Assembly (NCBI GenBank): GCA_001779195.1
Contig: MFJL01000041.1
Span: 16,881-80,880 of the forward strand
Direction of reading: 5' to 3'
Source: Candidatus Gottesmanbacteria bacterium RIFCSPHIGHO2_02_FULL_39_11
GTDB lineage: Bacteria; Patescibacteriota; Microgenomatia; 2-02-FULL-39-11
DNA: 64,000 bases
Positions 56,441 through 64,000 of the stretch are shown one piece after another. Position 1 is the stretch's first letter. The number at the start of each line of letters is the position of its first letter. The notes under the pieces are model-generated. The model searched no databases and was not told the origin of the DNA. It saw only the letters and a program-made list of their open reading frames with translations. The position numbers and the translations under genes are program-made.

Positions 56441-56846
56441 AAGTCATCCCAAAACCTCTTTTGCGAACTCGAGCGGGATTGCTTCGCTACGCTCGCAATG
56501 GCGGGTATTGAGATGAGTTCTAGATCAAATTTATTATCTAAGGAATTTGTACACAACTCAGAGGGGATATCAGAAATAGTATATCCATAGCTGTGGTCAT
56601 TTTCTACGCGAACTTATACCTCTGGAATAAAATTCCACTCTGTCATACTGTTATATCAGTGTTGTTCCCGCGCAGGCCTGCCTGCGCAGACAGGCGGGAA
56701 TCCATCGTTAAATTTTGTTACCCTATTTTATTTTTGTCATCCTGAGGTCTCCCGAAGGATCCCGTCCGATACCAGAAGCCTTTAAAAGAAATAGTTAGGA
56801 AATATAAAATCTCTTGTATACACTAAATATCTGATATACTCAAATT
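56441..56846. repeat. repeat-rich spacer holding at least three palindromic elements of the GTCATCC family. It separates the glycan cluster from the defense island.
   Basis: At 56441: AAGTCATCCC...CTCGAGCGGGATTGCTTCGCTACGCTCGCAATGGCGGG. At 56665-56703: TTCCCGCGCAGGCCTGCCTGCGCAGACAGGCGGGAATCC. At 56733-56768: TTTGTCATCCTGAGGTCTCCCGAAGGATCCCGTCCG. All GC-rich compared with the surrounding sequence. Confidence 0.55.
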
Positions 56847-57284
56847 ATGACTCAGCTTTTCACCACCGGTTATCAAGGGGAAACCATACATGAATTTATT
56901 CAAAAAATCACTACAAAAAATATAGAAGCAATTATTGATATCAGAGAAAATCCCACAAGCAGAAAACCAGGGTTTAGTAAAAACGCGCTTCAGAGACGAC
57001 TTGATTCTGTTGGTATAGATTACTATCATTTTCAGGAATTAGGAACCCCAAAACCCCTTCGTAATCTTTTAGCACATAGTCAAAACTATAATCAGTTTTT
57101 TGAAGAATATAAACAATTTTTACCGGAGTTTCAGGATGCTCTTGATGATATTATCGAGATAGGCAGTAATAAAAGAATTTGTCTATTGTGTTTTGAAAAA
57201 GATCCACATTATTGTCATCGAAAAATTGTCGCGAATCTTATCTCTTTCTACACCGGCAGAGATATTTCAGTCGTTCATATATAA
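56847..57284 (+). CDS. DUF488 (YeaO-like) family protein
   Basis: MTQLFTTGYQGETIHEFIQKI ... IDIRENPTSRKPGFSKNAL ... ICLLCFEKDPHYCHR, characteristic of DUF488. Confidence 0.65.
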   Translation: MTQLFTTGYQGETIHEFIQKITTKNIEAIIDIRENPTSRKPGFSKNALQRRLDSVGIDYYHFQELGTPKPLRNLLAHSQNYNQFFEEYKQFLPEFQDALDDIIEIGSNKRICLLCFEKDPHYCHRKIVANLISFYTGRDISVVHI

Positions 57285-57291
57285 TGTCTCC

Positions 57292-58083
57292 ATGGAATGG
57301 AGAGACGAAGAAATATTAATGCTTGTAAAAGTCTATCCCACACCAAGTAAGAAATATGGTGAAACCGTTTGTTCAGCAGGCATAACCCGTCATGGAAAAT
57401 GGATAAGAGTTTATCCTGTTCCATATCGTGATCTTCCTCCCAGTCAACAGTTTGTTAAATTTCAATGGATTAGGGCTAGGATTACACAAGCTAAAGAAAA
57501 ACTTAGCAGACCGGAAAGTCACAAAATAGATCTTAATAGTATAAAGTTATTAGAAAAAATTCCGGCAGGTGATAAATGGGGTGAGAGAGAAAACTATTTC
57601 TTACCTTATGTCAGTAAATCTTTAGAGGTACTTTTTGAAAATCAAAAAATCCACAACGTATCTCTTGGCGCATTTAAACCTAAGAAAGTAAAAGATTTTA
57701 TTATCGAACCCTCTGAAGATGAATGGGACTTAGGTCAAAAGGGAATACTCAGCCAAACAAGTCTCTTTAACGACAGACGTGCGACTTTAGAAAAAACACC
57801 TTACCGTTTTAGATATAAATTTACCTGTAATGACGATCGCTGTGTGGGACATAACATGATAATTCTTGACTGGGAAGTCTTTGAAAGCTACCGGAGATGG
57901 AAAAGAATTTATAAGGATGGGAAATTGACATTGGAAAAACTTAAGGAAAAATGGTTGACCTACTTTTTTCAAAAAAGAGAATCTTATTTTGTTGTCGGTA
58001 CCGAATCTGAGTTCGGAAAATTCATGATTCTTTCCATAATCAGTCCAAAACGCAAAGAGTCACAACTCAGATTTGGTTTTTAG
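57292..58083 (+). CDS. hypothetical protein (264 aa), no recognisable family. Coupled to the DUF488 gene. A TTG alternative at 57193 would overlap the DUF488 gene by 92 nt.
   Basis: ORF begins 8 nt after the DUF488 stop. Hydrophilic. Cys/His cluster CNDDRCVGHNM. Confidence 0.4.
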   Translation: MEWRDEEILMLVKVYPTPSKKYGETVCSAGITRHGKWIRVYPVPYRDLPPSQQFVKFQWIRARITQAKEKLSRPESHKIDLNSIKLLEKIPAGDKWGERENYFLPYVSKSLEVLFENQKIHNVSLGAFKPKKVKDFIIEPSEDEWDLGQKGILSQTSLFNDRRATLEKTPYRFRYKFTCNDDRCVGHNMIILDWEVFESYRRWKRIYKDGKLTLEKLKEKWLTYFFQKRESYFVVGTESEFGKFMILSIISPKRKESQLRFGF

Positions 58084-58112
58084 TAGGGTAAACAACGACA
58101 TAATAGTATCTG

Positions 58113-58155
58113 AATTTCTTGTGGATAAGTACTATAATCCACGTATAAGGTTTTT
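58113..58155 (+). repeat. direct repeat copy 1 (GAATTTCTTGTGGATAAGTACTATAATCCACGTATA). Copy 2 is at 59616-59658.
   Basis: About 43 nt with about 88% identity between the copies. Contains a TATAAT -10-like hexamer and TGTGGATAA. Confidence 0.6.
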
Positions 58156-58165
58156 TTATTTATGG

Positions 58166-58255
58166 ATGAAAGAGTTGATGAGTGAATTTACAAGTTTAGC
58201 TGAAGAGGCGCGCAAACTAGAAAAGAAAATAGTTGAGGGTTGGAAAAGTATTTAA
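58166..58255 (+). pseudogene. 3'-terminal remnant of a type I RM hsdM gene
   Basis: MKELMSEFTSLAEEARKLEKKIVEGWKSI parallels the C-terminus of the intact HsdM at 61210-61299 (MKELTEEFRTLTKEAHELEKKIEEDWEKII). Confidence 0.6.
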
Positions 58256-58302: not shown

Positions 58303-59319
58303 ATGAAAAACTCACAGCCTCAATCTCAAATAATTATCTATAAAGCAGAAACTGGCGAGACTAAAATCGACGTGCGTTTTGATGGGGACACGGTCTGGTT
58401 GAGTCAGGATGAAATGGCTCGATTGTTTGACAAAGGCCGTTCAACTATTGCAGAACATATTGCTAAAGTATTTAAGGAAAAAGAACTAGTCGAGGGATCA
58501 GTATGTCGGGAATTCCGACGTACTGGCGCTGATGAAAAAGAATATCAGGTAAAATATTACAATCTCGATGTTATTATCTCCGTTGGTTACCGAGTCAAGT
58601 CACTCCGTGGTACTCAATTTCGTATTTGGGCAACCAAGCGTCTGCGCGAATATATCGTCAAAGGTTTTGTGATGGATGATGAGAGACTGAAAAACCCCGA
58701 TCTGCCGTTTGATTATTTTGAAGAACTCACTCGTCGTATTGCTGATATCCGCACTTCAGAAAAAAGATTTTATAGAAAAATTACAGACATCTATGCTACC
58801 AGTGTCGATTATGACCCGACAGACAAACAGAGTATTCTCTTTTTCAAAACGGTCCAAAACAAAATGCATTATGCAATTACCGGAAGTACTGCGGCGGAGA
58901 TAGTAGCCAGTAGAGTGGATAGTAAAAAACCAAATGTGGGACTGACAAACTTCAGGGGTAATAAACCAACAAAAGAAGAAGTAGTGATCGCCAAAAATTA
59001 TTTGAGTGAACAAGAGCTTCTTGTTTTAAATAATCTTGTCGAGCAATATCTCGTATTTGCGCAAGGACAGGCCATACAAAGAGTGCCAATGTATATGAAA
59101 GACTGGATTGGTAAACTCCATGCATTTTTACAGATTAATAATAAAGATATTTTGAAAGATGCAGGAAGAATCTCTCACGAGTTGGCTACAGAAATAGCCG
59201 AAAGGAATTTTGATGAATACAAGAGAAATGAAGTAAAAAAATTAGATAATAATTTTGATTTGGCTGCTTTACACGCGCTTGAAATTGCAAAGAAAAAGAA
59301 AGGGGAGGATAAAAAATGA
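58303..59319 (+). CDS. RhuM family virulence/defense-island protein
   Basis: IIYKAETGETKIDVRFDGDTVWLSQDEMARLFDKGRSTIAEHI ... YNLDVIISVGYRVKSLRGTQFRIWATKRLREYIVKGF, a strong match to the RhuM family core. Confidence 0.8.
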   Translation: MKNSQPQSQIIIYKAETGETKIDVRFDGDTVWLSQDEMARLFDKGRSTIAEHIAKVFKEKELVEGSVCREFRRTGADEKEYQVKYYNLDVIISVGYRVKSLRGTQFRIWATKRLREYIVKGFVMDDERLKNPDLPFDYFEELTRRIADIRTSEKRFYRKITDIYATSVDYDPTDKQSILFFKTVQNKMHYAITGSTAAEIVASRVDSKKPNVGLTNFRGNKPTKEEVVIAKNYLSEQELLVLNNLVEQYLVFAQGQAIQRVPMYMKDWIGKLHAFLQINNKDILKDAGRISHELATEIAERNFDEYKRNEVKKLDNNFDLAALHALEIAKKKKGEDKK

Positions 59320-59658: not shown

Positions 59659-59721
59659 GCCTTCAACCAATTAAGAAGATAAAACAAACAAATTAGTATT
59701 TTGCTGACTTATAATAAATAT

Positions 59722-61299
59722 ATGAATACACACAGTAGTCAACTTCAGGAACAATTGTGGGCAGCAGCTGAGCACATGCGTGCAAATAGCAGTCTAAAGC
59801 TGAACGAAATCTCAGAGCCAATTTTAGGTCTTATTTTTCTCAAATTTGCTGATGTATGTTTTCAAAGAGCTACAAAAGAGCTAGAAAAAGATAGATTATC
59901 CATAAAATCTTCAAGACAAAGACCTCTTATTTCAGATGACTATAAAGCAATGGGAGTTATTTATATTCCGAAAGAAGCATCATACTCATATCTTATTAGT
60001 CTCCCGGAAAATGAAAATCTAGGAAAAACAATAAACGGTGCCATGAAAACAATTGAGGAAGAAAATCGTGAGCTTGCTGGAGTATTACCCCAAGATTATA
60101 CCAATATTTCTAGGAAAGCTGATGAAAATAACCGAATACTTATATCGCTACTAAAAAGCTTTAATCAAATTCCTGATGATATTGAAGGGGACTCTTTTGG
60201 TGAAATATATGAATACTTTCTGGGGAATTTCGCTCTTTCTGAAGGAAGAAATGGAGGAGAATTCTTTACAGCACAATCAATAGTAAAGCTTTTAGTTGAA
60301 ATTATTGAACCCTATCATGGAAGGATTTATGATCCTGCTTGCGGAAGCGGGGGCATGTTTGTACATTCTGCTCATTTTGTGGCTGAACATATAAAAAATA
60401 AATCTCATGTGATGGACGAAGTGGCAATCTATGGACAAGAGAAAACAGACTCTACCGTCAAAATTGCCAAAATGAATCTCTCAATTCATGGACTTTCAGG
60501 AAAAATTATCCAAGCAAACTCATTTTACGAAGATGTATATGAAAGTGTCGGAAAATTTGATTTTGTGCTTGCAAACCCTCCTTTTAATGTAAAAGGGAAA
60601 GATAAAAGAGGACAATTGGTCATAGATCCCGCTCGACTTCATGGGGATCCCAGGTATTATTTCGGTCTTCCTCTTACAGGTAAAAAAGAGATAAGTAATG
60701 CTAATTATCTCTGGATTCAGATCTTTACCAGCGCATTGTCATCAAAAGGGCGTGCCGGATTTGTTATGGCTAATTCTGCAACGGATGCAGGTAATGCGGA
60801 AAAGGGAATTAGGGAAAAACTAATTGAAGAGGGAATTGTGGATGTTATTATCTCAACTCCTCCCAATATGTTTCTTAACGTTACTCTTTCATCAACGTTA
60901 TGGTTTTTAGATAAAGGTAAAAAAAGCACGGATAGACAAAATAAAATTTTGTTTATTAACTCCCAAGATATTTTTACTCCTGTTGATCGCGCACACAATA
61001 GATGGACGGATGAACAAATCCAAGAAATCGCTGGAATTGTTCGGCGATATCGAAGTGAAGAAGGAAACGAAAAATATAAAGATATAAAAGGCAGGTGCAA
61101 AGTTGCAACTCTTGATGAAATTAAGGCCAATGATTATTCGCTAAATCCTGGAAGATATATAGAAATAGTTGAAAAAGAAATGGATGATGTGGAGTTTGAA
61201 GCAAGAATGAAAGAATTAACTGAAGAATTCAGAACTCTAACCAAAGAAGCTCACGAGCTTGAAAAGAAAATAGAGGAAGATTGGGAGAAAATTATATGA
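59722..61299 (+). CDS. hsdM: type I restriction-modification system DNA methyltransferase subunit M
   Basis: Motif I IYDPACGSGGMF. Motif IV LANPPFNVKG. N-terminal HsdM_N-like helical domain. The track start 59701 is a TTG; ATG is at 59722. Confidence 0.9.
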   Translation: MNTHSSQLQEQLWAAAEHMRANSSLKLNEISEPILGLIFLKFADVCFQRATKELEKDRLSIKSSRQRPLISDDYKAMGVIYIPKEASYSYLISLPENENLGKTINGAMKTIEEENRELAGVLPQDYTNISRKADENNRILISLLKSFNQIPDDIEGDSFGEIYEYFLGNFALSEGRNGGEFFTAQSIVKLLVEIIEPYHGRIYDPACGSGGMFVHSAHFVAEHIKNKSHVMDEVAIYGQEKTDSTVKIAKMNLSIHGLSGKIIQANSFYEDVYESVGKFDFVLANPPFNVKGKDKRGQLVIDPARLHGDPRYYFGLPLTGKKEISNANYLWIQIFTSALSSKGRAGFVMANSATDAGNAEKGIREKLIEEGIVDVIISTPPNMFLNVTLSSTLWFLDKGKKSTDRQNKILFINSQDIFTPVDRAHNRWTDEQIQEIAGIVRRYRSEEGNEKYKDIKGRCKVATLDEIKANDYSLNPGRYIEIVEKEMDDVEFEARMKELTEEFRTLTKEAHELEKKIEEDWEKII

Positions 61300-61389: not shown

Positions 61390-62862
61390 ATGACGGAAAT
61401 TGATGTCCAACTACTCGCCCAACTTCGCACCTGGAATCCCTGGTGGCAACAAGGTAGAGAAGGAATTGATAGGTATAAAGATCCTTCTTATAAGCGTGAG
61501 CTCTATACTAACATCTGTAATCAGTATAAAGACGGCAACCAGATCGTAAGCATCATAGGGATGCGTCAGGTAGGAAAATCTACTTTGATGCGCCAAGTGA
61601 TCAAAAATTTACTTGACTCTGGAGTTGATCCTAAGACAATTCTCTATATTTCATTCGATGATCCATTCGTTCGGGTTAAATACGATAAGAAAAAAATATT
61701 CGACATCATAGTTGAGATTTTCCTGCAGGGATTGATTCAGGAGGACCTGGATGTATATAAGGGCACATTGTATTTTTTTCTGGATGAGATCCACCAGCTT
61801 CCCAACTGGGAAAAAACACTGAAAACTTACTATGATCGATCATTTCCCATTCGGTATATGGTCAGCGGATCATCATCGATCCAGTTGCAGTCGAAAAATA
61901 AAGAGAGTTTACTCGGAAGGATATCCGAATATGTTCTTTGGCCATTTTCATTCCGTGAATATCTCGAGTTTCATGAGAATAAGGATAAGCAGATACAAGG
62001 TGTGATACAGGAAGCCCGAGAAGTTTTTACGAAATATAACACCACATTTGATATACACACAATATATGAATCATTACAAGATCTCTACAAAAAAGCATTT
62101 GTGTGGAGTAAGCAACCTATCCAGTCCAATCTTCAAAAATTTATAGTCTGTGGCGGGTTCCCGAGAGCTTGGCAGCAGCTTGATTTTATATCCCGGCAGC
62201 GGATCTTGTGGGAACAGCATGTCGGGAAAGTGATTTTTGAAGATCTGGTACAGGTAGCAAATATCCGTAAACCGCGAGACCTCGAGTTTTTGTTCACCTA
62301 CATCATCGAAAACAACGGCAAAGAAGTGAAACTGGGTGAGATGAAACATAACTTAAATATTCATTGGGAAACACTCGATAGATATCTCAGCTATCTTATC
62401 CGTACGTTTCTTATTTTTCGCGTCGAGCGGACGAAGACGAAGCGTCTCCTGCAGAAAAGAAGATCGGGGAATGTGAAGTTCTACCTTACTGACGTAGCAC
62501 TGCGAAACGCATTTTATAACCGTACTGAAGATGTTTTTTTTGATTCCGAAGAGATGTCCTTTATTGCGGAAAATCTTGTCTGCACGGCAATCGAGCGTTG
62601 GCTACGTGGGCCTAAGAAAGAAGAGCAGGTATCCTTTTATAAAGACAGGAGCGGAGAAGTGGACTTTATATTTAAAGGACCAAATAATATCACGCCAATC
62701 GAAGTCAAATGGAGATCCGACATGCCGCCCTTGAAAACATTACTAAAACTAGAAACATCCTGGAGCACGACGCAAAGTCTTCTCATTACGAGAGATCAGG
62801 AACTTGACTTACGGGGAGGCAGACTCTCGATCCCTTTATGGTTTTTCCTATTATGTTTTTAA
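61390..62862 (+). CDS. AAA-family ATP-binding protein of the DUF4143/COG1373 type, embedded between hsdM and hsdS
   Basis: Walker A IIGMRQVGKSTL. Walker B-like FFLDEIHQL. About 490 aa with the typical length and architecture. Confidence 0.7.
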   Translation: MTEIDVQLLAQLRTWNPWWQQGREGIDRYKDPSYKRELYTNICNQYKDGNQIVSIIGMRQVGKSTLMRQVIKNLLDSGVDPKTILYISFDDPFVRVKYDKKKIFDIIVEIFLQGLIQEDLDVYKGTLYFFLDEIHQLPNWEKTLKTYYDRSFPIRYMVSGSSSIQLQSKNKESLLGRISEYVLWPFSFREYLEFHENKDKQIQGVIQEAREVFTKYNTTFDIHTIYESLQDLYKKAFVWSKQPIQSNLQKFIVCGGFPRAWQQLDFISRQRILWEQHVGKVIFEDLVQVANIRKPRDLEFLFTYIIENNGKEVKLGEMKHNLNIHWETLDRYLSYLIRTFLIFRVERTKTKRLLQKRRSGNVKFYLTDVALRNAFYNRTEDVFFDSEEMSFIAENLVCTAIERWLRGPKKEEQVSFYKDRSGEVDFIFKGPNNITPIEVKWRSDMPPLKTLLKLETSWSTTQSLLITRDQELDLRGGRLSIPLWFFLLCF

Positions 62863-62875
62863 CGAAAAATATTTT

Positions 62876-64000
62876 ATGACAACCTGGACAAAACAAAAAT
62901 TGGGAGATTGTCTCAGTTTCAGAACCGGCAAACTTAATTCAAATGCTGCAATTAAGAATGGAATGTATCCATTCTTTACATGCTCTCAAGAAGTATACAA
63001 AACGAATACATGGAGTTTTGATACTGAATGTGTGCTTTTGGGGGGAAATAATGCTGATGCAATTTACCCCCTTTTTTATTTTAAGGGTAAGTTTGATGCT
63101 TATCAAAGGACCTATGTTATAGAATCTAAAAATAATAACAATATACGGTTTTTTTATTACGTTTTGCGTAAAAAGCTTGAAGACCTTCGAAATCAATCAA
63201 CAGGAGCTACTACAAAGTTTTTAACACTAAAAATCTTAAACAACCTTCAGATAACCACTCCAAATGAATTTATACAATCTCAAATGGTTGCTGTTCTCTC
63301 CTGTTATGATGACCTAATCGAAAACAACGAGAAGCGAATAAGGATTTTAGAGGAAATGGCGCAGAGGCTTTATACAGAATGGTTTGTAAAATTCAAATTC
63401 CCGCTTGCCCGCCGTAGCCTTAGCGAAGGACGGGGACATGAAAAAGTGAAAATGCTTGAAAGCGGAACAGAATATGGAATGATTCCTGAAGGATGGAAGG
63501 TAGTTTTAATGAAGGATGTTGCAGAAATAGTGGACTGTTTGCATTCAAAGAAACCAGAACGAATTAGAAGCGGAACTCATATATTATTACAGTTAAATAA
63601 TATTTTAGAAAACGGTCTTATAGATATATTAGATAAGTACATAATAAGTGAGGATGATTATCAGAAATGGATAAAAAATATTGAATTACGGAAGGGAGAC
63701 TGCGTAATAACAAATGTTGGACGAATTGCAGCAACAGCACAAATTTCTGGTGAAATCAGGTTAGCAGCCGGTAGAAATATGACTGCAATAAGACCTAAAA
63801 GAATTCCTGATTCATTCTTAATTCAATATCTAAAATCTCCTCACATTGAGAGAGAAGTCAAAATGAAAATTGATGCGGGGGCTATTATGGGAAGCTTGAA
63901 TGTTAAAAGTATCTATATATTGAAAATACTCTTACCTGATGATAGCACACTAGAGAATTTTTCAGTAATAGCTTCTTCTTGGAGAGAAGAAATGAATATA
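62876..64000 (+). CDS. hsdS: type I restriction-modification system specificity subunit S, 3'-truncated by the window edge. Not in the ORF track because no stop is reached.
   Basis: Translated by hand from ATG 62876: MTTWTKQKLGDCLSFRTGKLNSNAAIKNGMYPFFTCSQEVYKTN...GGNNADAIYPLFYFKGKFDAYQRTYVIESKNNN...RFFYYVL. Central coiled spacer NEKRIRILEEMAQRLYTEWFVKFKFP, then a second TRD (GMIPEGWKVVLMKDVAEIVDCLHSKKPE...). Confidence 0.85.
   Translation, partial: MTTWTKQKLGDCLSFRTGKLNSNAAIKNGMYPFFTCSQEVYKTNTWSFDTECVLLGGNNADAIYPLFYFKGKFDAYQRTYVIESKNNNNIRFFYYVLRKKLEDLRNQSTGATTKFLTLKILNNLQITTPNEFIQSQMVAVLSCYDDLIENNEKRIRILEEMAQRLYTEWFVKFKFPLARRSLSEGRGHEKVKMLESGTEYGMIPEGWKVVLMKDVAEIVDCLHSKKPERIRSGTHILLQLNNILENGLIDILDKYIISEDDYQKWIKNIELRKGDCVITNVGRIAATAQISGEIRLAAGRNMTAIRPKRIPDSFLIQYLKSPHIEREVKMKIDAGAIMGSLNVKSIYILKILLPDDSTLENFSVIASSWREEMNI

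Follow-up and report, generated by a model that had tools for sequence, protein, structure and literature searches.

A DUF488 gene and its coupled neighbour beside a type I restriction-modification island of a Candidatus Gottesmanbacteria genome: a short-form member of the candidate phage-defence pair PDC-M19

In the genome of Candidatus Gottesmanbacteria bacterium RIFCSPHIGHO2_02_FULL_39_11, a bacterium of the candidate phyla radiation (CPR), a gene of the DUF488 family (gene A) is closely followed by a second gene (gene B), just upstream of a type I restriction-modification (RM) island. The stretch analysed, called the window hereafter, comprises 64,000 nucleotides (nt) of contig MFJL01000041.1 (positions 16,881 to 80,880 of the forward strand), and coordinates refer to it unless another locus is named. 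Our analysis indicates that genes A and B are one functional unit, an intact short-form member of the mobile pair PDC-M19, and we estimate at roughly 0.8 the probability that such a unit is an obligate two-protein conflict module directed at nucleic acids. An earlier reading of the sequence alone had proposed a candidate two-gene defence or toxin-antitoxin (TA)-like module; this proposal is supported, its TA-like part only through the Panacea-like domain carried by long-form relatives of gene A. The pair was already known as PDC-M19 and its domains have apparently been named in Pfam (DUF488-N3a, DuOB). The size and strictness of the coupling between A and B, the fold assignments obtained from predicted models, the Panacea domain of the long forms, the one-sided dependence between the two families and the examples of the pair in phage immunity cassettes and on plasmids are new here.

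Results

Assignment of the two genes to PDC-M19

The pair is arranged in the window as follows.

56847–57284, + strand: gene A, DUF488, PADLOC PDC-M19A, short form of 145 amino acids (aa), intact open reading frame (ORF)
57285–57291, + strand: gap of 7 nt between the gene A stop and the gene B ATG, read from the sequence
57292–58083, + strand (ATG at 57292): gene B, 263 aa plus stop, PADLOC PDC-M19B, ORF in a frame different from that of gene A

The DUF488 gene announced by the sequence-only reading was recovered by Pfam DUF488 (PF04343) with an E-value of 5e-32 and 111.4 bits for a cut-off of 22.2, and the protein also passes Pfam DUF488-N3a (PF22751, the 'active DUF488-N3 subclade') with 32.4 bits for a cut-off of 27. 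Two PDC-M19A models match gene A (PDLC04505, E 5e-44; PDLC04504, E 1e-30), the alignment being confined to positions 149-294 of the M19A model (294 in all), which correspond to its C-terminal DUF488 part. The gene A protein is 100% identical to the product of NCBI locus A3D77_07175, from a metagenome-assembled genome of Candidatus Gottesmanbacteria. The tight coupling of the two genes was confirmed as well, and the ORF of the second gene is real, its announced length of 264 aa being a codon count that includes the stop. The absence of a recognisable family for the second protein stands for Pfam and NCBIfam, where no match was found, not even to DuOB (PF22557) at E<=0.1; it does not stand for PADLOC-DB, in which the PDC-M19B model PDLC04508 matches residues 6-255 on model positions 4-263 of 269 with an E-value of 3e-65.

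By sequence, the window pair is thus a member of PDC-M19: gene A matches the A model, gene B matches the B model, and the two are adjacent and co-directional in the order A>>B beside a type I RM system, as in the setting in which PDC-M19 was discovered. It differs from that setting in its short-form gene A, in flanking the RM operon and in being hosted by a CPR bacterium. PDC-M19 was described as a 'guilt-by-embedding' phage-defence candidate (Payne et al. 2024, bioRxiv 10.1101/2024.01.29.577857); in the supplement of that study it figures under CAS_00089, the cassette FAM_02799>>FAM_02993, with 174 instances.

A second PADLOC candidate, PDC-M45, is matched by gene A as well, in its component B (E 5e-20) and its component C (E 3e-16); two candidate systems or more therefore contain DUF488 enzymes, each with its own partners.

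Strict coupling and patchy distribution

When clustered at 50% identity, the gene B family (E<=1e-3) comprises 3,376 representatives. The 150 best relatives listed are 185-312 aa long, most of them approximately 255-300 aa, and with such lengths no fusion to DUF488 is seen among them. A pattern scan of 185,579 genomes, one per species, placed relatives of gene B in 361 of them (about 0.2%), with a patchy distribution over Patescibacteria, DPANN archaea, Planctomycetota, Verrucomicrobiota, Chloroflexota, Omnitrophota, Myxococcota and other phyla.

Among the 80 genome loci that were fetched, a DUF488 gene adjoins gene B in 77, upstream and co-directional in 72 and downstream and convergent in 5, the remaining three having gene B at the start of a contig. 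In the viral sequences of IMG/VR, 88 contigs have a gene B relative, and in the 80 that were fetched DUF488 again adjoins gene B in 77, two of the three exceptions being cut by the contig end. When the pair is co-directional (n=129), the genes are separated by 30 nt or less or overlap in 124 cases, a spacing of operon type, with 53 overlaps, 22 of which are of 4 nt. Hence the adjacency of the two genes is kept elsewhere, plasmids and Gordonia phages included (see below), and the homologues do not behave as housekeeping genes, being patchy, carried by mobile elements and repeatedly lodged inside type I RM operons. A conserved third gene was looked for in the genome loci and rejected, the most frequent neighbour cluster occurring in only 7 of the 80.

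Copies of the pair in decay were also found. Both genes are broken by in-frame stops or frameshifts in Candidatus Roizmanbacteria (locus L002, MGAN01000004.1, 4510-5733), where the pair has thus decayed jointly. Gene B is broken beside an intact gene A in two loci (L044 and L151), and gene A is N-terminally truncated beside an intact gene B in one (L022).

The dependence between the two families is one-sided, since relatives of gene A at 37-41% identity with DUF488-N3a matches (one of them weak) occur without gene B, as would fit a role of gene B as specialised adaptor for an enzyme of wider use. Two of the three gene-B-less DUF488 relatives examined adjoin a NudC-like NUDIX gene and an ORF of 87-91 aa. 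The conserved trio formed by these two genes and DUF488 (about 40% identity) was noted at L164 (2811-4450, where the DUF488-N3a match is weak) and at L166 and L167 (2678-4492), and in the latter two it lies near dnaX-ybaB-recR. The trio hints at substrates related to NAD or to RNA caps for this enzyme clade.

Two loci with unusual partners deserve mention. On the third exceptional viral contig (L086, 8855-9208), the gene after B encodes a protein of DUF4326 (PF14216), the sister family of DUF488, in which a similar C..C/CH motif is seen; this may represent a partner swap within one enzyme clade, or may be due to chance as DUF4326 is very common. On the Sulfolobus islandicus conjugative plasmid pSOG2 (L162, 4995-5861 and 5849-6355), a gene B homologue (E 6e-53) occurs without DUF488 and is overlapped by a downstream ORF of 168 aa, which matches neither DUF488 nor any PDB sequence and in which a D...E-x-K-like motif can be discerned by eye.

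Predicted folds and conserved residues

The predicted model of gene A (pLDDT, the predicted local distance difference test score, of 93.8) adopts the fold of protein tyrosine and dual-specificity phosphatases (PTP/DSP), with further matches to RapZ and to domains of the diphthine/tetrapyrrole-methylase type. Across DUF488, 23 residues are invariant: T6, G8, Y9, D31, R33, S38, K40, G42, F43, S44, Y59, H61, L65, G66, P68, R72, C112, C115, F116, E117, C123, H124 and R125. Gene A shares the predicted scaffold of the PTP/DSP phosphatases and is not a canonical member, because the CX5R(S/T) loop is absent; after strand 111-115 it has instead C115-FEKDPHY-C123-H-R125, which can be read as C-X9-R or as C-H-R. 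Comparison of DUF488 with PDB sequences yielded noise only (MurT, glutaredoxin, 3C protease), and in the literature on DUF488 that was searched no mechanism is given.

Gene B is putatively an OB-fold (oligonucleotide/oligosaccharide-binding) protein distantly related to DuOB, as judged from its predicted model and from its relatives. DuOB, the 'dual OB-containing domain', is the sole Pfam family matched by relatives of gene B (14 of 49 aligned, E<=0.01), and the best score among individually scanned relatives is 28.4 bits for a cut-off of 27, over approximately 145 N-terminal profile positions only. The structures matched by the model include SSB, PriB, RPA, telomere-end binders, HIN domains and baculovirus LEF-3, always with Z below 8, and a search of BFVD structures gave weak matches to LEF-3, a binder of single-stranded DNA (ssDNA) with several OB folds. 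The similarity to OB-fold ssDNA binders does not extend to sequence, and these proteins have no counterpart of the helix-rich C-terminal half of gene B, no equivalent of its E24, C27 and D193-W-E195, and no obligate pairing with an enzyme. The gene B profile had no match among PDB sequences at E<=10, and the literature searched held nothing relevant on 'DuOB'.

The invariant residues of gene B are K13, P16, E24, C27, R39, P42, R46, K56, R73, R99, P130, D193, W194, E195 and P252, and together with the near-invariant positions they are mostly lysine, arginine and aromatic residues. The CNDDRCVGH cluster remarked on in the sequence-only reading is present at residues 178-186. This cysteine cluster was considered as a functional core and rejected, whole subgroups of the family being devoid of it.

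Long forms of the DUF488 partner

About half of the partner proteins are of approximately 300 aa, with an N-terminal extension of 150 aa ahead of DUF488. We identify this extension as a divergent form of the SocA_Panacea domain. Of 20 members, seven match the family; the best match, with 27.5 bits (cut-off 25.7) and an E-value of 6e-6, runs co-linearly through positions 7-99 of the 113 in the profile, and the Pfam Panacea cut-off is passed by one of 10 long-form N-terminal domains. When the extension profile was compared with PDB, a single chain was reached, via the same motif and with a borderline E-value of 0.014; it is 7yk3_B, a 'DNA ADP-ribosyl glycohydrolase', which by its name is DarG. 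The window gene A lacks this domain, and no Panacea-like remnant was found in the spacer upstream of it or elsewhere in the window.

Locus layout and upstream spacer

The surroundings of the pair in the window are given below.

56441–56846, + strand: non-coding spacer of 406 bp upstream of gene A
58154–58255, + strand: relic of an hsdM 3' end (a different allele) directly after gene B, recognised by similarity to the HsdM C-terminus
58303–59319, + strand: RhuM-family gene, PADLOC PDC-S05 (PF13310 E 2e-105; PDC-S05 E 4e-134)
59701–61299, + strand: hsdM, type I methyltransferase (HsdM_N and N6_Mtase; PADLOC MTase_I E 4e-185)
61390–62862, + strand: AAA_14/DUF4143 ATPase (PADLOC PDC-S01), between hsdM and hsdS, recognised by Pfam and PADLOC
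about 62876–64000, + strand: hsdS, cut by the window end (open frame; Methylase_S on the gene call of the parent contig)

The order RhuM, hsdM, DUF4143 ATPase and hsdS proposed downstream of the pair was confirmed by family matches and by the parent contig. On the latter, hsdS is followed by a 200-aa gene and then by an HSDR_N/ResIII gene (hsdR), so that the type I system of the island is complete. The RhuM protein (PDC-S05) and the DUF4143 ATPase (PDC-S01) are candidates of the same study as PDC-M19 (bioRxiv 10.1101/2024.01.29.577857). The 200-aa gene between hsdS and hsdR (L171, 17243-17845), which begins approximately 250 nt past the window end and has no Pfam match, represents with RhuM and the DUF4143 ATPase a further 'guilt-by-embedding' candidate.

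Directly after gene B, the last 33 codons of an ORF at 58073-58255 encode a segment 55% identical to residues 499-531 of the window HsdM (pairwise E 2e-8, 58154-58252 compared). With this relic hsdM tail, the pair sits where cassettes turn over; the sequence suggests either that an older hsdM was largely displaced by the pair or that the site saw recombination between cassettes. No homology to HsdR, HsdM or HsdS was found for gene A or B with Pfam and the PADLOC RM models, and on this sequence comparison the pair is not an RM subunit.

Upstream of the spacer lies a long cell-envelope cluster with a glycosyltransferase and YfhO. The spacer had been described as filled with repeats, and this description failed, since no direct repeat family was found in 56441-56846, the repeat search giving one GC-rich palindrome of 13 nt and two inverted pairs of 11 nt at chance level. 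Two GC-rich palindromic hairpins stand amid AT-rich sequence at approximately 56466-56506 and 56667-56702, one example being GCCTGCCTGCGCAGACAGGC; neither has a second copy within the window, and the scan found no terminator-like character in them. No Rfam family matches the spacer, no tRNA lies nearby, and the fold z-score of the spacer, -1.85, is not significant. A repeat array or an RNA element was therefore rejected for want of repeats, Rfam family, tRNA or significant structure. The promoter of the gene pair is presumably within the spacer, where a sigma-70-like match occurs at 56781-56810; promoter-like matches in the spacer region are not above chance (15 found for 11.9 +/- 3.4 expected).

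Genomic context in chromosomes, plasmids and phages

Restriction genes are the most frequent immediate neighbours of the pair in the genome loci. For the 143 immediate neighbours, the top Pfam families are ResIII (9), SWI2_SNF2 (6), DEAD (6), HSDR_N (4) and T1RH-like_C (4) in raw counts, and the top PADLOC models are REase_I (6), PbeA, RmrA, type IV and type III restriction enzymes and AriA; the others are singletons, with ordinary metabolic genes among them. An HsdM-like gene lies within 10 kb of the pair in 11 of the 80 genome loci. The order hsdM-hsdS-...-[A-B]-hsdR is observed in L056, L060, L064 and L066; in L060 and L066 hsdR starts before gene B has ended, start and stop overlapping, and in L056 it begins 3 nt after B.

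The pair was found in 23 plasmid records, 11 of which are conjugative. On Rhizobium pRL8 and on Pseudomonas and Streptomyces plasmids the two genes are convergent with overlapping 3' ends, and plasmid copies stand in accessory regions, by transposases and a HEPN/Toprim-associated protein. The pair is also present, always in one same arrangement, in five cultured phages of Gordonia terrae (Nymphadora, BatStarr, TimTam, Eviarto and Herod). In Nymphadora (L161, NC_031061.1; 5001-5855 and 5846-6298), the homologue of gene B (E 5e-74) is gene 43, listed as 'hypothetical', whose start and the stop of gene 44, the immunity repressor, overlap. Gene 42, which is convergent to it and labelled 'HipA toxin', proved to be a DUF488 gene (E 1e-44). 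Genes 42-43 lie between the repressor and the integrase, a region which in phages is a typical site of defence genes expressed from the prophage. The gp43/gp44 defence system of the Gordonia phage CarolAnn was considered as a related case and rejected: it is RexAB-like and unrelated to the pair, and Nymphadora and BatStarr appear there only as attacking phages.

In 25 of the 80 viral loci, a DNA methyltransferase of approximately 430 aa combining ParB_N and N6_N4 domains lies directly upstream of the pair on the same strand (examples among L126-L160 are L158, 1531-2820, and L145, 6122-7426), with terminase gpA, portal and capsid genes a few genes downstream of the pair. The ParB-methyltransferase and the pair may constitute a three-gene DNA-modification cassette in phages.

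Discussion

Proposed mode of action

The tight adjacency of A and B across chromosomes, viruses and plasmids, their conserved residues and their setting are in agreement with a conflict module that acts on nucleic acids. In the mechanism that we propose, gene B, with its predicted OB fold and its invariant basic and aromatic surface, would bind ssDNA or DNA ends. Gene A, as its predicted fold and its fully conserved active-site-like residues suggest, would act on a nucleotide or on the end of a nucleic acid, removing or transferring a group linked through phosphate, and in a complex of both proteins B would deliver A to the nucleic-acid substrate. The module would act in the conflict between virus and host, and in the chromosomal RM island of the window its most probable role would be to make the ends of invading DNA unusable for ligation, circularisation or replication. 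This specific division of labour, in which B targets and A catalyses, is put forward tentatively and at slightly less than even odds, from predicted models. It is favoured because the conserved surface of gene B is typical of nucleic-acid binding, because gene A shows enzyme-like conservation and because B depends on A-type enzymes and not the reverse.

Several observations weigh against this interpretation. DNA binding, complex formation and chemistry are all drawn from predicted folds, and the phosphatase chemistry of gene A is not assured because its CX5R loop is absent. The invariant E24, C27, D193 and E195 of gene B are not obviously needed in a pure binding subunit, and the antitoxin-type Panacea domain of the long-form partners points to a toxin/antidote logic. 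The window pair lies beside the RM operon, not inside it. The viral setting with the ParB-methyltransferase and packaging genes would fit equally well a DNA processing that benefits the phage. Finally, PDC-M19 has the status of a candidate, as the 145 PDCs are predictions (bioRxiv 10.1101/2024.01.29.577857), and it was not found by name in the main text of the literature searched.

Comparison with known systems

A rhodanese-phosphatase superfamily with a 'RapZ-C-DUF488-DUF4326' clade was reportedly described by Burroughs and Aravind in 2023, some members of the clade being said to have been predicted to process DNA ends in conflict systems; the Pfam families DUF488-N3a and DuOB presumably stem from the same work. 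The window pair resembles this clade by the predicted PTP/DSP fold of gene A, its RapZ match and its passing of the DUF488-N3a cut-off, by the DuOB matches of gene B relatives and by the locus in which gene B adjoins DUF4326. It differs in that the window gene B is below every Pfam threshold and in that some DUF488-N3a relatives have no gene B.

DarTG is an anti-phage TA system made of an ssDNA ADP-ribosyltransferase (ART) toxin and a macrodomain 'eraser' antitoxin, and is also found in RM and defence contexts. The pair has in common with it two genes, a partner directed at ssDNA (predicted in gene B) and an enzymatic partner that can bear a domain of toxin-binding type. In contrast to DarTG, gene B has a predicted OB fold and not that of an ART toxin, gene A has a predicted PTP fold and not a macrodomain, and the window gene A lacks Panacea; neither window protein matches DarT or DarG in PADLOC or Pfam. 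PanAT systems (Kurata et al. 2022, PMC8832971), in which Panacea proteins act directly as antitoxins against many unrelated toxins and the antitoxin-first order is the commoner one, share with the pair the Panacea domain of long-form A, the antitoxin-like gene in first position, the tight spacing and an occurrence in bacteria, archaea and phages. They differ from it because in the long forms Panacea is fused to a conserved enzyme, because the window A has no such domain and because no toxin fold is recognisable in gene B. The pair is thus a member neither of DarTG nor of PanAT, their defining domains being absent.

Alternative explanations

The features shared with DarTG raise the question of whether PDC-M19 could be a reversible nucleic-acid-modification immunity of the DarTG kind built from other folds, with an OB 'writer' or clamp and a DUF488 'eraser'. 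Gene B would then be an effector that arrests growth or replication by acting on or clamping ssDNA, and DUF488 its antidote, the balance between them being tipped by phage infection, with abortive infection as the outcome; DUF488 would reverse the effect of B enzymatically, and the long forms would also neutralise B directly via their Panacea domain. Such a scheme would account for the Panacea extension and its link to the DarG chain, and for the invariant acidic and cysteine residues of gene B. The order A before B, seen in the window and in 72 of the 77 genome loci with both genes, is that of the commoner antitoxin-first systems (PMC8832971). Furthermore, B is essentially never found without A, and A-type enzymes occur alone in housekeeping-like settings, suggesting that gene A is not intrinsically toxic; the loss of gene B beside an intact A in two loci, with the reverse in one, also counts in favour of the scheme. 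However, the window gene A has no Panacea domain and the window no remnant of it, the DarG match is borderline, gene B shows no toxin fold, and L022 retains an intact B beside a truncated A. Moreover, the convergent arrangement B-> <-A, in which the two genes are transcribed separately, is common (five genome loci, many viral loci, plasmids and the Gordonia phages), which is unusual for TA pairs. We regard this scheme as rather unlikely, while giving it real weight. A plain addiction pair, which would stabilise the island or element by post-segregational killing with no anti-phage role, draws on the same Panacea-like domain, on the compact two-gene architecture and on carriage by mobile elements, but appears quite improbable: both proteins are large, enzyme-like or OB-fold, neither has a helix-turn-helix, convergence is common, and both are strongly conserved at the residue level across domains of life.

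The pair could also serve mobile elements themselves, as a DNA-processing or counter-defence device that protects or modifies their own ssDNA or genome ends at entry or packaging. The ParB-methyltransferase upstream and the packaging and capsid genes downstream in viral loci, the conjugative plasmids and a predicted OB fold suited to ssDNA entry intermediates are in line with this possibility, but the pair is also lodged within type I RM operons of chromosomes, where in some cases its stop and the start of hsdR overlap, and the plasmid copies stand in accessory regions near transposases and a HEPN/Toprim-associated protein. In the Gordonia phages it is moreover coupled to the immunity repressor within the repressor-integrase region, which is expressed from the prophage and would suit a prophage-encoded defence. 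We therefore consider a benefit to the element improbable. The overlap with hsdR or the 3-nt gap before it, the order hsdM-hsdS-...-[A-B]-hsdR and the prevalence of restriction subunits among immediate neighbours could point to accessory subunits of the adjacent type I RM enzyme, such as HsdR modulators. This is very improbable given that an HsdM-like gene lies within 10 kb in only about 11 of the 80 genome loci, that most loci and every phage or plasmid example viewed have no RM genes beside the pair, and that in the window itself RhuM and the relic hsdM tail lie between the pair and hsdM. As for a housekeeping pair for DNA repair or RNA-end healing, OB and phosphatase folds are common in repair, and DUF488 relatives stand by NudC-like NUDIX genes, some of them near dnaX-ybaB-recR. 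The rarity of gene B (about 0.2% of species genomes), its scatter over unrelated phyla with variable neighbours, the carriage by plasmids and phages and the pseudogenised copies leave this explanation scarcely credible.

Significance

For the window itself, the outcome is modest, as it adds a single further case of a catalogued candidate, from a CPR genome beyond culture. Were the pair to work as a module of defence or conflict, two widespread families, DUF488 and the DuOB-like proteins, would gain a function, and a phosphatase-fold enzyme acting on nucleic-acid termini would be added to the effector chemistries of prokaryotic immunity. Since the pair is obligate across approximately 150 loci and its invariant residues are mapped, the question is open to direct experiment, for which tractable copies exist in the Gordonia terrae phages Nymphadora and BatStarr (genes 42-43), on pRL8 of Rhizobium johnstonii 3841 and on a Pseudomonas plasmid, and the Panacea-DUF488 fusion offers a clear toxin/antidote hypothesis. 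Should the less probable DarTG-like scheme prove true, PDC-M19 would represent a new DNA-end chemistry used by bacteria, archaea, plasmids and temperate phages.

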